Assembly (NCBI GenBank): GCA_051891195.1
Contig: JBJFEZ010000020.1
Coordinates: 1-51,702, forward strand
DNA from: Clostridia bacterium
GTDB lineage: Bacteria; Bacillota; Clostridia; TANB77; CAG-508
Reading direction: 5' to 3'
DNA length: 51,702 nucleotides
Under the pieces are notes generated by a model. The model was not told the DNA's origin and did no database searches. It was given only the letters and a program-made list of their open reading frames with translations. Both the position numbers and the translations under genes were made by a program. Positions 6,436 through 38,240 of this stretch are shown here, piece by piece; the stretch's first letter is position 1, and each line of letters opens with the position of its first letter.

Positions 6436-6509
6436 AATTTTCATTTGATTTTCTTACGTTTACTACTTGAAAAACAAAATAAAATATGATAAACTAAAAA
6501 AGTATATTT

Positions 6510-6766
6510 TAAAAGCAACCAAAAAGGACAACACAATTTTGAAAAAAGGCTTACAGAGAGCTAAACAGTTGGTGAAAGTTTAGTAGCAACTTAACAATAT
6601 TGTTATCACCTTTTAGCTGTTTCTTTGAAACAATAGTAAAAGAAAACGTATTCCTGCGTTAAAGGTTAAAAAGAGAAAAGAAAAAATAAAATTCTTTTAA
6701 ATTAGGTGGTACCGCGGAAAACAAAGCCATTTCGTCCTAAAACATATTGGATGAAATGGCTTTTTT
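6510..6766 (+). promoter_or_regulatory. T-box riboswitch (Ile)
   Basis: Stem I AGAGA and GGTGAAA elements, candidate specifier ATC at 6605-6607, T-box AGGTGGTACCGCG at 6704-6716 and terminator at 6723-6766; upstream of ileS. Confidence 0.93.
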
Positions 6767-14886: not shown

Positions 14887-15046
14887 TAGACAGTTAGTCT
14901 ATTAGTTTATTCGCATAACATTCCTACGTAAGAAATAGTAAGCCAATTTTACGCAGTTCTATTACAGTGTAAAATTGGCTAACTCTTTCTAACTCGTCAT
15001 TCTTCGAACCACTTGTATGCTCTTAAACTAATAGACTAACTGTCTA
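14887..15046. repeat. Palindromic dispersed repeat, copy 1
   Basis: Perfect 23-bp terminal inverted repeats (14887-14909 and 15024-15046) around a core nearly identical to copy 2. Confidence 0.9.
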
Positions 15047-25310: not shown

Positions 25311-26012
25311 ATGCAATATGTAGCTATTATTATAATTAGCATTATAACATTAATAATTCTAAAATTTGCTTGGAATATAAAAATAAAAGATATAAAAAAA
25401 ATAAAAGAATTAGGTTATAACAAAGATTTAAATCAAATAACAAATAAATTACCAGAAAATAAAGAAATATGCAAAAACATATTAAAAAAATTAAATAACG
25501 AAAAAGTAAAAATAGAAAAAGACAATAATAATAAAACAAGTTTATATTTAGTGCTGTCAGATTCTATTTTAATAGCAAATATAAAAGACACCTTCACACG
25601 AGTACAAACTATAGCACATGAATGTTTACACTCTATTCAAAACAGAAAAATACTAATTTTTAATTTTGTATTTTCAAATATATATTTTATTTATTTTATA
25701 GTTGTATGTATTTTAGGCATATTAAAAATAAGCAAAAATTTTGAAATATTAAGTTTGTTTATATTAATAATGGCTAGTTTTGTACATTATACAATACGTA
25801 GTTATTTAGAAATGGATGCTATGACAAAAGCTAAGCCTTTAGCAAAAGAATATATGGAAGAAGAAGGAAGTTTAAACAAAGAAGAACAAAAAGAAATATT
25901 AGAAAATTATGAAATAATAAATGACATAGGAATAAAGCTAACAAATTATATATTAATTGCTAAATGTATTTTTAAATTGATAATGTATTTATTAATACTA
26001 ATTATATTTTAA
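25311..26012 (+). CDS. Membrane zinc metallopeptidase (YugP-like)
   Basis: IAHECLHSIQ, LEMDA and several TM segments. Confidence 0.7.
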   Translation: MQYVAIIIISIITLIILKFAWNIKIKDIKKIKELGYNKDLNQITNKLPENKEICKNILKKLNNEKVKIEKDNNNKTSLYLVLSDSILIANIKDTFTRVQTIAHECLHSIQNRKILIFNFVFSNIYFIYFIVVCILGILKISKNFEILSLFILIMASFVHYTIRSYLEMDAMTKAKPLAKEYMEEEGSLNKEEQKEILENYEIINDIGIKLTNYILIAKCIFKLIMYLLILIIF

Positions 26013-26229: not shown

Positions 26230-26274
26230 TAACATAAATTTTAAAAGTAACAATAAAGTTTTTAAAAAATGCTA

Positions 26275-26303
26275 TTGCATTTTTTAAAAACTTATAGTAA
26301 CAT
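26275..26303 (+). promoter_or_regulatory. Putative sigma-A promoter of the uracil permease leader
   Basis: TTGCAT, 17-nt spacer, TAACAT. Confidence 0.55.
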
Positions 26304-26324
26304 ATTCTTCAAGAGGTACAAAAA

Positions 26325-26447
26325 ATGACAAATTTTTTAGGAAATAAATTAAAAAATATAAAATCAGCAATTAATAAAATTGCTATCTTTACTATTTTTA
26401 TTTTACTTTTTCCTATTGTATATAATTTAAAAATTTTAAAACACTAA
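26325..26447 (+). CDS. Putative 40-aa leader peptide (pyrL-like)
   Basis: AAGAGG RBS; MTNFLGNKLKNIKSAINKIAIFTIFILLFPIVYNLKILKH*; stop codon lies within the terminator 5' arm. Confidence 0.55.
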   Translation: MTNFLGNKLKNIKSAINKIAIFTIFILLFPIVYNLKILKH

Positions 26448-26468
26448 TATTTTCTATTAGTGTTTTTT
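26438..26468 (+). terminator. Attenuator/terminator upstream of uracil permease
   Basis: AAAACACTAATA-TTTTC-TATTAGTGTTTTTT. Confidence 0.75.
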
Positions 26469-26531
26469 ATTGCTTAAAAAACTATACAAATTTGTCATAA
26501 GTACAAAATATTAATAAAATAAAGGGAGGAT

Positions 26532-27878
26532 TTGTTTATGAACGAAAGCAAAATGGTTTTAGATGTAAACGAAAAACCAACAATTACAAAATGGATTATT
26601 CTTGCAATTCAACACGTATTTGCTATGTTTGGTGCAACTATTTTAGTACCAATATTAGTAAACTCGGCAGCAGGAGAAACAGTACTTACAATACCTGTAG
26701 CACTAGTAACATCAGGAATAGGAACTTTAATTTACATACTATGTACAAAAGGAAAATCACCAGTATATTTAGGAAGCTCTTTTGCATTTATTGCACCACT
26801 TGTAGCAGCATTTGTAAAAGGTGGAATTTCTGGAGCAATGACAGGAATTATGGTAGTAGGTTTAATTTATGTAGTAGTAGCTATAATTATTAAATTTACA
26901 GGAAAAGAATGGCTTCATAAAATATTACCACCACTTGTTATTGGACCAATGATTATGATTATTGGCTTAGGGTTAGCACCAAGTGCTATATCTCAAATAG
27001 GCTTATCAACAGGAACACCTATTGAATGGAAAGGTGTACTAGTTGCAACAGTTTCATTTTTAGTAACAGCAATTATTATGACAAAAGCTAAAGGATTTTT
27101 AAAAATAGTTCCATTTTTAGTAGGAATTGTATCGGGATATATATTATCAATTTGCTTAGGATTAGTAGACTTTACACCTATAGCAGAAGCAGGATTCTTT
27201 AGTATGCCAAAATTTATATTACCATTTAAAGACTATGCTTTGAATTTTGGCGCTATACTAACAATAGCACCTATAGCATTAGTAACTATGGCAGAACATA
27301 TAGGAGACCACACTGCTTTAAGTGCTATAATAAATAAAGATTTATTAAAAGACCCGGGATTAGATAAAACATTATTAGGAGATGGTATTGCCACATTTGT
27401 TGCAGGACTATTAGGAGGACCTGCTAATACAACTTATGGAGAAAACACATCAGTAGTAGGTATGACAAAAGTAGCTTCGGTTTGGGTAATTGGGCTAGCA
27501 GCAGTTATTGCAATAGGATTAGGATTTTTAGGAAAATTTACAGCAATAGTTTCTAGTATTCCACAGCCAGTATTAGGAGGAGTCTCTTTGCTATTATATG
27601 GATTTATTGCAGTAAATGGATTAAAGGTACTTATTAAAAATCAAATAGACTTTGAAGAACCAAAAAATGTAGTTGTTGCATCTACAATGCTAGTTCTAGG
27701 ACTAGGTGGAGCAGCAATATCTATAATTAGTGGAGACTTATCAGTAACTATTTCAGGAATGAGTTTAGCAGCTGTAATTGGCATATTGTTAAATCTTTGT
27801 ATTCCTAAAAATAAAAATGAAGAAGAAAAAGCAAAAAAAATTACAAGTAAAAAAGAAAAGAAAAAAATAAAAGTTTAA
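26532..27878 (+). CDS. Uracil permease (NCS2/UraA-PyrP family)
   Basis: QHVFAMFGAT, YLGSSFAF, EHIGD, PANTTYGEN. Start is TTG 26532 or ATG 26538. Confidence 0.93.
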   Translation: MFMNESKMVLDVNEKPTITKWIILAIQHVFAMFGATILVPILVNSAAGETVLTIPVALVTSGIGTLIYILCTKGKSPVYLGSSFAFIAPLVAAFVKGGISGAMTGIMVVGLIYVVVAIIIKFTGKEWLHKILPPLVIGPMIMIIGLGLAPSAISQIGLSTGTPIEWKGVLVATVSFLVTAIIMTKAKGFLKIVPFLVGIVSGYILSICLGLVDFTPIAEAGFFSMPKFILPFKDYALNFGAILTIAPIALVTMAEHIGDHTALSAIINKDLLKDPGLDKTLLGDGIATFVAGLLGGPANTTYGENTSVVGMTKVASVWVIGLAAVIAIGLGFLGKFTAIVSSIPQPVLGGVSLLLYGFIAVNGLKVLIKNQIDFEEPKNVVVASTMLVLGLGGAAISIISGDLSVTISGMSLAAVIGILLNLCIPKNKNEEEKAKKITSKKEKKKIKV

Positions 27879-27896: not shown

Positions 27897-28523
27897 ATGG
27901 AAGTAATAGAATTAAACCACCCTTTAATAGAACATAAATTAGCAATTTTAAGAGATAAAAAAACAGGAACAAAAGAATTTAGAGAATTAGTAAGTGAAAT
28001 AGCAATGTTTTTATGCTATGAAGCTATGTCAGAAGCTGAGCTAGAAGAAGTAGAAATAGAAACACCTATAACAAGCTTAAAAACTCAAAAATTAAATGAA
28101 GATAAATATGCCTTTGTTCCAATATTAAGAGCAGGAATGGGGATGCTAGAAGGAATTACAAGAGTAATACCAAATGCAAAAATTGGTCATATTGGAATGT
28201 ACAGAAATGAAGAAACTTTTGAACCAGTAAACTACTACTTTAAAGTTCCAAAAGGAATAGAAAATAAAGAAGTAATTATATTAGACCCAATGCTTGCAAC
28301 AGGAGGTTCTGCAGTAGATGCTATAGAACTGTTAAAAAGCAAGGGGGTTACTAAAATGAAATTCTTGTGCGTAATTGCTGCCCCAGAAGGAATTAAAAGA
28401 GTACAAAAAGAACATCCTGATGTACAAATTTATTGTGCACATATAGATGATCATTTAAATGAAAATAAATATATAGTTCCAGGATTAGGAGACGCTGGAG
28501 ACAGAATTTTTGGAACAAAATAA
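27897..28523 (+). CDS. upp: Uracil phosphoribosyltransferase
   Basis: [28 protein letters not shown]. Confidence 0.98.
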
Positions 28524-37726: not shown

Positions 37727-37847
37727 GAAAGTTAGTTGCTCGGAAGTAAAGCTTCCGAGCAAATTGATTAACTCTTTCTAACTTGTCATTCTTCAAACCA
37801 CTTGTAAGCTCTAAACTAACATATTTATAGACTTATATACTAGTAGG
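37724..37847. repeat. Palindromic dispersed repeat, copy 3 (left-truncated, different inner hairpin)
   Basis: 37769-37847 matches the right half of copy 2. 37812-37847 is the reverse complement of copy 2's left arm (26046-26081) with one mismatch. Confidence 0.85.
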
Positions 37848-37946: not shown

Positions 37947-38022
37947 GGGCGCATAGCTCAGCTGGGAGAGCATCTGCCTTACAAGCAGGAGGTCATAGGT
38001 TCGATCCCTATTGCGCCCACCA
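37947..38022 (+). tRNA. tRNA-Val(TAC)
   Basis: Cloverleaf with acceptor GGGCGCA/TGCGCCC, anticodon loop CTTACAA, TTCGA and encoded CCA. Confidence 0.98.
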
Positions 38023-38079
38023 TTTCAAAAAATGTTTAGTCATGCTAAATATTTTTTTGTTTACACACATATTTATTAT

Positions 38080-38156
38080 GGCCTGGTAGTTCAGTTGGTT
38101 AGAACGCTAGCCTGTCACGCTAGAGGTCGACGGTTCGAGCCCGTTCCAGGTCGCCA
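38080..38156 (+). tRNA. tRNA-Asp(GTC)
   Basis: Acceptor GGCCTGG/CCAGGTC, anticodon loop CTGTCAC, encoded CCA. Confidence 0.98.
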
Positions 38157-38164
38157 TTATTTAA

Positions 38165-38240
38165 GCCTTGATAGCTCAGTTGGTAGAGCAAGGGACTGAA
38201 AATCCCTGTGTCAGTGGTTCAATTCCACTTCAAGGCACCA
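38165..38240 (+). tRNA. tRNA-Phe(GAA)
   Basis: Acceptor GCCTTGA/TCAAGGC, anticodon loop CTGAAAA, encoded CCA. Confidence 0.98.

Follow-up and report, generated by a model that had tools for sequence, protein, structure and literature searches.

The stretch of DNA analysed here, referred to below as the window, is 51,702 nucleotides long and belongs to a Clostridia bacterium. It carries an operon for pyrimidine salvage in which the gene for a uracil permease is followed by upp, and the permease gene is preceded by a compact, sequence-defined element of about 160 nt that contains a promoter, a short ORF, a small hairpin, a U-rich tract and an intrinsic terminator. The features are as follows.

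26275-26303, + strand: promoter, from the sequence, with -35 TTGCAT at 26275-26280, a 17-nt spacer and -10 TAACAT at 26298-26303
26312-26316, + strand: leader Shine-Dalgarno sequence AGAGG, 8 nt upstream of the ATG
26325-26447, + strand: leader ORF of 40 codons (MTNFLGNKLKNIKSAINKIAIFTIFILLFPIVYNLKILKH), its first half A-rich and its second half U-rich
26366-26384, + strand: hairpin 1, AGCAATT-AATAA-AATTGCT, 7 bp, inside the ORF (RNAalifold consensus); a candidate pause hairpin
26385-26437, + strand: U-rich tract between hairpin 1 and the terminator, T = 0.60, with one TTNTTT motif at 26398-26403
26438-26471, + strand: intrinsic terminator, AAAACACTAATA-TTTTC-TATTAGTGTTTT and a T-run; 12-bp stem 26438-26449/26455-26466, loop TTTTC
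26488-26504, + strand: post-terminator segment (AAATTTGTCAT..GTAC), complement of leader GTAC/ATGACAAATTT (26316-26335) in the MFE fold
26538-27878, + strand: uracil permease (NCS2 family), first gene downstream, with Shine-Dalgarno sequence GGGAGG at 26524-26529
27897-28523, + strand: upp, uracil phosphoribosyltransferase, second gene of the operon (TIGR01091 and NF001097 above cut-off; PF14681)

An earlier, sequence-only reading of this DNA had described a promoter, a ribosome-binding site with a 40-codon ORF, a small hairpin, a U-rich tract and a terminator, and all of these are present. It had also placed the stop codon of the ORF within the 5' arm of the terminator, with a uracil permease and upp behind it. 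The former is confirmed by the sequence (TAA, 26445-26447) and the latter by family profiles, the permease matching PF00860 (E 2e-95), TIGR00801 above its cut-off, and the uracil permease model NF007995 with E 9e-122, which is below the strict cut-off of that model. A Pfam search with the leader peptide returned no family. None of 200 shuffles of the leader folds as well as the native sequence (z = -3.8). Both promoter hexamers, together with their TATAGTAA context, show little or no variation amongst 11 aligned relatives; the promoter is not among the calls of a simple promoter scan, which missed it because the -10 is weak. Transcription is predicted to start at about 26311-26312, 1-2 nt upstream of the leader Shine-Dalgarno sequence. 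A promoter-like site at 26492-26520 was considered as a promoter for the permease and rejected: its -10 ends 3 nt upstream of the permease Shine-Dalgarno sequence, so that a transcript from it would begin in or after that sequence.

In a DNA search, 10 genomes of the same genus were found to contain the leader (70-75% identity), in each case directly upstream of the orthologous permease (78-90% amino-acid identity). A covariance model (R1) was built from 11 leaders and run on 51 genomes of the genus, that of the host included; it returns exactly one strong copy (E <= 4e-12) in 24 of the 51, the host again counted. Two weak matches to the model, L049 and L050, do not represent the element. The permease occurs in 25 of the 51 genomes and is accompanied by the leader in 24 of them, and in the twenty-fifth (G063) the contig ends inside the leader, of which the terminator remains visible. 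Given one copy per genome, and a contig end to explain G063, the leader can be regarded as restricted to the permease. The expectation that ORF length, U-tract and stop position would be kept in relatives is borne out; the ORFs of the 24 genus leaders have 35-41 codons. The genes upstream of the element differ among relatives. In L002, L003 and many other loci only 21-45 nt separate the T-run of the terminator from the permease Shine-Dalgarno sequence, which means that in those loci the permease is transcribed only through the terminator.

The RNAalifold consensus contains two hairpins only, hairpin 1 and the terminator, and no antiterminator or other competing structure is conserved in it. 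In an alignment of 48 homologues, 94.8% of the cells are paired, compared with 73% in shuffles (none of 500 as high) and 36-58% in slid controls, figures that lean towards structure because the alignment was fitted to the model. Double changes are seen in all 19 pairs of these 48 sequences (7 of 7 in hairpin 1 and 12 of 12 in the terminator). The conservation and covariation of the element are thus beyond chance. The distance from the AUG to the GCAA..TTGC core of hairpin 1 is 36-50 nt, and the nucleotides of this core are conserved across clades in different reading frames (GCA-ATT here, G-GCA-AAG in L062); taken alone, hairpin 1 is better than shuffles in only 17 of 69 loci. It may serve as a pause site for RNA polymerase.

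The leader ORF is probably maintained as a translated frame. The frame that begins at the conserved Shine-Dalgarno sequence (kept in 24 of 24 genus leaders as GAGGT, GGGGT or GGAGT) and ATG is open up to the terminator in every one of the 24, while the other two frames of the same leaders contain 159 and 60 stops. Substitution rates were estimated from ten representatives (45 pairs), with leader and permease compared in the same pairs. The leader ORF gives pN 0.347, pS 0.331 and pN/pS 1.05, values that carry the caveats of a short ORF and of a C-terminal part that aligned poorly, whereas the permease gives pN 0.092, pS 0.473 and pN/pS 0.19. The first five leader codons are alike at non-synonymous and synonymous sites (pN 0.057, pS 0.065), which suggests a constraint at the level of the RNA. 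Between clades the leader peptides cannot be aligned. The open frame and the contrasting ratios indicate that what has been conserved is translation and not the peptide; as judged from these comparisons, selection keeps the leader frame open without keeping the sequence of the peptide. The sequence-only reading had recognised that the peptide might instead be conserved as an independent small membrane protein, and this is not what the ratios or the unrelated peptides of different clades indicate. A type I toxin, an idea prompted by the 5'/3' fold-back described below and by the hydrophobic peptide, was dropped because pN/pS is ~1 and the element is strictly linked to the permease.

The tract between hairpin 1 and the terminator is of extreme composition. 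T makes up 0.62 of the 45 nt before the terminator stem, which is the 99.92nd percentile of the 60,438 coding-strand windows of the host (mean 0.287, sd 0.085, 99th percentile 0.511) and lies above the highest window of the permease gene, which encodes a protein of the 12-helix type and reaches 0.467. Over 71 leaders the mean is 0.54, and when each is set against coding windows of its own genome, 60 of the 71 exceed the 95th percentile and 44 the 99th. C accounts for only about 0.08 of the tract, and this scarcity makes it point to UTP rather than CTP. By codon position, U amounts to 0.43, 0.70 and 0.58 in the leader versus 0.21, 0.41 and 0.32 in the permease. This excess arises mainly from the choice of amino acids (Phe, Ile), so that composition alone does not exclude a membrane peptide. 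Synonymous usage is mixed, leader against permease (GTT for Val 0.51 versus 0.29; ATT for Ile 0.61 versus 0.63), and synonymous U enrichment was accordingly not counted as support.

The same arrangement extends beyond the genus. The wider set consists of the 80 best permease loci, taken from contigs of one genome per species. A Shine-Dalgarno sequence, a start codon, an ORF of 18-58 codons and a stop at or in a terminator are found in 71 of the 80 under a relaxed census, and in 48 under a stricter one that demanded perfect stems and a stop before the end of the stem. The stop lies 1-15 nt upstream of the terminator stem in 29 loci, in the 5' arm in another 29, in the loop or 3' arm in nine and beyond the terminator in three; in one locus the ORF runs into the permease. 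The three include L118, which is mis-assigned: hairpin 1 was taken as its terminator, and by eye the stop lies just upstream of a weaker terminator stem. In L064, L065, L066, L073, L077, L079 and L095 the ORF enters the terminator or extends through it. Amongst the nine misses, L085 is positive when a longer window is used. Promoter and permease are kept in L089 and L092, where the ORF has been lost, and in L114, where the whole leader has been lost. None of the nine non-conforming loci matches an Rfam family at gathering score; the GC-rich leaders of L103 and L109 were considered as PyrR sites, which is unsupported, no Rfam family reaching gathering score there.

Across this wider set stems and peptides are often unrelated (stems include CACTAAT.., ATATCAATTC.., AGAAGATTCT.., TGGAACTAAG.. 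and AATACTAGAAA..), and the stem sequence CACTAA(T/A) is retained in many otherwise divergent loci. When identical, stricter criteria were applied to both, 61 of 77 permease loci passed as against 10 of 881 control genes of the host genome; one of the ten is the present locus, and the others are genuine small genes (among them an rpsU-like ORF of 56 aa) or unconvincing. It should be noted that a stop within -15 to +12 nt of a terminator stem is found for 122 of 273 terminated host genes (45%); stops beside terminators are therefore common in the host, and the position of the stop alone is weak evidence.

The genetic background of the host is of importance here. Its genome (1.13 Mb, 61 contigs, 92% complete, 28% G+C) has four genes with a PRTase domain, namely hpt, upp, comF and a 316-aa ORF of the size of a PRPP synthetase, and neither pyrR nor pyrE is among them. 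The PyrR RNA element (RF00515) has no match in the whole host genome, the control genomes of B. subtilis and L. lactis being matched. That no PyrR-binding element lies in the leader, as the sequence-only reading had it, is supported by the window, which yields no RF00515 match when the threshold is relaxed to E<=10; at this threshold, in fact, it matches no Rfam family at all, leader families included. The cut-off of the PyrR model NF003549 is exceeded in 0 of the 51 genus genomes. A search for pyrR, which that reading had proposed, thus found none, and the gene is probably missing from the host; only probably, because the genome is 92% complete. Within the same 92%, pyrB was not found either, and it occurs in 3 of the 51 genus genomes. 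The host does have pyrG, rho and nusG. The permease–upp operon is the sole route from free base to UMP found in the genome and, with no PyrR gene, PyrR RNA element, pyrB or pyrE to be seen, the host probably depends on this operon for pyrimidines and is probably a pyrimidine auxotroph. The closest permease loci in public records come from uncultured gut Clostridia, Clostridium sp., Bacilli MAGs and one Candidatus Merdicola faecigallinarum (names as deposited). The thought that the same leader might stand before other pyr genes did not hold: no leader ORF precedes pyrG of the host, and in all three genus genomes with pyrB that gene has a plain promoter and Shine-Dalgarno sequence in place of an attenuator leader.

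We consider that the element is probably, with a likelihood of roughly 0.6, a translation-dependent transcription attenuator for the uracil permease–upp operon, similar in kind to those of pyrBI and rph-pyrE but not homologous to them. Transcription would begin just upstream of the leader Shine-Dalgarno sequence, and the A-rich start of the leader would load a ribosome. RNA polymerase would be delayed at hairpin 1 and would then have to cross some 50 nt of U-rich template. With ample UTP, the polymerase would stay ahead of the ribosome, the terminator hairpin would form and transcription would end. With scarce UTP, the polymerase would be slow in the U-tract and the ribosome would reach the stop codon in the 5' arm; a ribosome sitting on that arm would block the hairpin and so allow read-through into the permease gene and upp. 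In the read-through RNA of this clade, the post-terminator segment would then pair with the leader Shine-Dalgarno sequence and AUG. What we infer is pausing, together with a dependence of read-through on both UTP and the ribosome, and a race of this kind between polymerase and ribosome would most likely let the cell read its own UTP supply. The sequence-only reading had proposed a pyrBI-style attenuator that relied on coupling. The layout and conservation of the element, the lack of conservation of the peptide, a terminator that cannot be bypassed and the absence of PyrR all speak for that proposal, with the amendment that physical coupling of the E. coli type is not needed, a kinetic race being enough.

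In general, pyrimidine control in Firmicutes is the province of PyrR, ribosome-coupled attenuation belongs to the Proteobacteria, and B. subtilis is the model of uncoupled, 'runaway' transcription. Transcription is said to outrun translation in B. subtilis, in work of Johnson et al. 2020. The observation that 45% of ordinary host terminators abut stop codons fits an uncoupled default with termination as the resting state, and suggests that host ribosomes normally do not interfere with termination, which is the OFF state of the model. In E. coli, by the account in PMC4824070, coupled translation represses a terminator almost completely when a stop codon lies within a few nt of it, full strength being regained beyond ~27-30 nt; the same source places the pyrBI terminator inside the leader ORF and has it paced by pause sites. 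Regulation of pyrE is described as altered when the stop codon of rph is brought nearer to the pyrE attenuator (PMC2784333). For pausing in Gram-positives, the relevant report (PMC12288461) is that NusG of B. subtilis pauses the polymerase at TTNTTT in conjunction with a pause hairpin, that such a pause leaves time for the tlrB leader peptide to be translated, and that N81 and T82 of NusG read the T-rich pause motif. When the host NusG is aligned with the best solved NusG chain (8ehq_G), N-T is found opposite N81/T82.

It is about an even chance that the system is a general one, such that PyrR-less gut Bacillota, mostly also without de novo pyrimidine synthesis, share a widespread nucleotide sensor composed solely of leader ORF, pause hairpin, U-tract and terminator, which has been repeatedly re-invented or is diverging fast. 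It would be OFF while the polymerase outruns the ribosome and ON at low UTP, and the fold-back of the present clade would make leader translation a one-shot, strictly co-transcriptional event.

Other explanations deserve consideration. The attenuator might depend on the ribosome but respond to another signal, be it translation capacity, charged Phe, Ile or Lys tRNA, or a ribosome-targeting antibiotic. The leader is indeed rich in Lys and Asn codons and then in Phe and Ile codons, and the known leader-peptide attenuators of Firmicutes, tlrB and vmlR, are described as antibiotic-responsive (PMC6851288, PMC9226507, PMC12288461). Such a signal is nevertheless unlikely: there is no conserved antiterminator for a stalled ribosome to favour, stalling of a ribosome upstream would not keep the terminator from forming, and the genes regulated are for pyrimidine salvage, in a host without PyrR or de novo synthesis and behind a tract of extreme U content. 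It has also been considered that the ORF is secondary and that a trans-acting RNA-binding protein or a small ligand acts through hairpin 1 or the CACUAA stem. The fixed distance of the GCAA..UUGC core from the AUG, the retention of CACTAA(T/A) in many divergent loci, and the presence of rho and nusG are all compatible with this. It is a decidedly unlikely account, given that all 24 genus leaders keep the ORF open, that 71 of 80 loci retain the layout, that other clades have quite different stems, that neither an Rfam family match nor PyrR was found, and that the varying upstream neighbours leave no regulator gene linked to the element.

Much the same low probability attaches to an unregulated partial terminator, which would hold expression at a fixed low level or tie permease transcription to the ability to translate, with no metabolite as signal. 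The lack of a conserved alternative structure agrees with such a device, as do the natural variants without the ORF (L089, L092) or the leader (L114), but a conserved ORF, a conserved internal hairpin and an extreme U-tract would all be needless in it. The least probable of these explanations, and in our view a very improbable one, is an independent gene for a small membrane protein, equipped with its own terminator, behind which the permease is expressed by constitutive leakage. In its favour are the polar N-half and hydrophobic C-half of the peptide in all clades, the Shine-Dalgarno sequence belonging to the ORF, the ordinariness in this host of terminators that abut stops (45% of terminated genes), and the fact that U-richness comes through hydrophobic codons. 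Against this stand the pN/pS of 1.05 compared with 0.19 for the permease, the failure of peptides to align between clades, the many C-halves interrupted by N, P, S, K or E (for example, ..LFMISNFPTINILEKH), the occurrence of the hairpin in different reading frames, a T content of the leader above that of every permease window, the lack of a Pfam family, and an element that is never found away from the permease and has one copy per genome. The practical consequence for annotation is that ORFs of 30-40 codons in this position should not be called hypothetical membrane proteins.

The translation-dependent attenuator that we favour can be compared with several known systems. In pyrBI attenuation, low UTP pauses RNA polymerase and the coupled ribosome blocks the terminator. 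Like the pyrBI leader (pyrL) of E. coli and Salmonella, the present element has a leader ORF of ~40 codons close to the promoter, which extends as far as an intrinsic terminator preceded by U-rich sequence; neither has an antiterminator, and both stand upstream of pyrimidine genes. It differs in that the host is a Firmicute with NusG of the pro-pausing type and that the genes regulated are those of salvage (permease–upp) rather than de novo synthesis. Its stop is usually located within the 5' arm of the terminator or immediately upstream of that arm; an internal hairpin is conserved in addition, and the present clade also has a post-terminator anti-Shine-Dalgarno segment. There is no sequence or Rfam relation to pyrL; with no Rfam match at E<=10 and a likeness of design only, the element is best regarded as an analogue of pyrBI/pyrE attenuation and not a member of that group by descent. 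The seven relatives in which the ORF enters or traverses the terminator resemble pyrBI in this respect, PMC4824070 referring to a 'terminator inside of pyrBI leader peptide'. According to PMC6524683, pyrBI has a second control by reiterative transcription; unlike pyrBI as described there, the present element has no T-run at the predicted transcript start, and thus no sign of that second control. With rph-pyrE of E. coli it has in common that the stop of an upstream translated frame lies near the attenuator hairpin, the distance between the two setting expression in rph-pyrE (PMC2784333). The upstream frame in E. coli is a real gene, rph, whereas here it is a dedicated leader of 35-41 codons with pN/pS ~1.

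PyrR attenuators (RF00515), found in Bacillus and other Firmicutes, resemble the element in being 5' leaders of pyrP/upp-type genes that have a terminator as output and uridine nucleotides as the class of signal, but here there is neither a PyrR RNA element nor the protein, and the proposed sensor is the race between polymerase and ribosome. E. coli controls upp-uraA at initiation, through UTP-sensitive choice of start site and reiterative transcription on a T-run at the start site. The genes and the presumed signal, UTP, are the same in the two organisms; no T-run follows the -10 at the predicted start in the present case. In contrast to attenuators of the trp, his and phe type, no 2:3 antiterminator is conserved, and the genes controlled are for pyrimidine salvage rather than for the synthesis of an amino acid. 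The tlrB (yxjB) and vmlR leaders of B. subtilis combine a NusG pause with a leader peptide, but sense antibiotic-stalled ribosomes via alternative structures; the present leader has no antiterminator and belongs to a pyrimidine salvage operon.

A full-text literature search, from which subscription journals were largely outside, found no leader-peptide attenuator for uracil permease or upp in Firmicutes, and according to a survey from 2010 leader-peptide systems were at that time hardly known beyond the Proteobacteria and Actinobacteria (PMC2965389). If the interpretation is true, no NTP-sensing leader-peptide attenuator would have been described before this one in Gram-positive bacteria; sensing of NTPs by a polymerase–ribosome race would then exist in these organisms without physical coupling, and they would offer a natural test bed for kinetic transcription–translation coupling. 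The natural variants, in which the ORF or the leader is lacking or the stop lies before, in or beyond the terminator, can be used to test the parts played in termination by pausing, NusG and the position of the ribosome. The attenuator would also control the only evident route of pyrimidine entry found for these PyrR-less gut Clostridia.

The segment at 26488-26504 that is complementary to the leader Shine-Dalgarno sequence and AUG is a feature that the earlier description of the locus did not include. The fold-back is possible only in read-through RNA, and it probably silences further translation of the leader or protects the very short 5' end. In the wider set, at most 2 of 200 shuffles were as good in 24 of 69 loci, and at most 10 of 200 in 36 of 69; since the pairing is significant in only about half of these loci, the fold-back is taken to be a clade-level addition. 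Amongst 11 loci of the genus, RNAduplex found none of 200 shuffles to be as good in six, 4-5 in two, and 9, 12 and 35 in the remaining three. Within the genus the pairing covaries, GGTAC with GTACC in some loci corresponding to GGTGC with GCAC in others.

Three relatives' permease loci (L089, L092 and L114) are natural deletion variants that carry the same promoter as the leader before the permease and upp genes. The leader ORF has been lost from L089 and L092, which leaves a hairpin alone, and in L114 the entire attenuator is missing; the three would make ready-made controls. In another relative it is the permease itself that is affected (G002, contig C24, 31824–33168): the gene is broken by an in-frame TAA and is matched in two pieces, its leader being intact, and it may represent a pseudogene or an assembly error.

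The placing of stop codons relative to terminators was surveyed across the leader's own genome. In 45% of ordinary terminated genes (n = 273; median 16 nt) the stop codon lies between −15 and +12 nt from the terminator stem. Such proximity is to be expected if ribosomes seldom disturb termination, that is, if transcription in this genome is uncoupled from translation. A hairpin also precedes pyrG on contig C23 of the same genome (locus L025), where a TTGACA-type promoter is followed by an A/U-rich hairpin, AAGATTAAAAAAA..TTTTTTTAATCTT, with a T-run (TTTTTG) directly before the pyrG Shine–Dalgarno sequence. No leader ORF was found in this upstream region, so the hairpin and T-run could constitute an attenuator of another kind.

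The following features of the window lie upstream of the leader or are other RNA elements.

25311–26012, gene 5′ of the leader, encoding a hydrophobic product of 233 aa
26047–26229, structured repeat of approximately 190 nt, directly 5′ of the leader promoter; further occurrences at 14902–15031 and 37761–37846
26256–26293, perfect 17 bp palindrome, AAGTTTTTAAAAAATGC-TATT-GCATTTTTTAAAAACTT, centred on the −35 hexamer of the leader promoter
6509–6742 and 37947–38237, T-box leader scoring 100 bits plus three tRNA genes, from Rfam

The palindrome could serve as an operator, could terminate transcripts that are antisense or arrive from upstream, or could be a by-product of an UP-element; at this site the relatives retain just an A-run and T-run flanking CTATTGCA. 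The repeat has terminal inverted repeats of 35 nt and an internal hairpin (fold −70 kcal/mol), and looks like a MITE because almost complete copies, 92–98% identical, are spread over at least 10 further contigs of the genome, together with numerous fragments. It is absent from the corresponding position in relatives. The 233-aa product gave no family match above the cut-off and a weak one to K_trans (18.7 bits), and the gene 5′ of the leader varies from one relative to another. The T-box leader and tRNA genes are unrelated to the permease–upp leader.

Across the genus, this uracil permease is present in only 25 of 51 species and pyrB in only 3 of 51, so for approximately half of the genus there must be some other source of pyrimidines, possibly nucleoside uptake.
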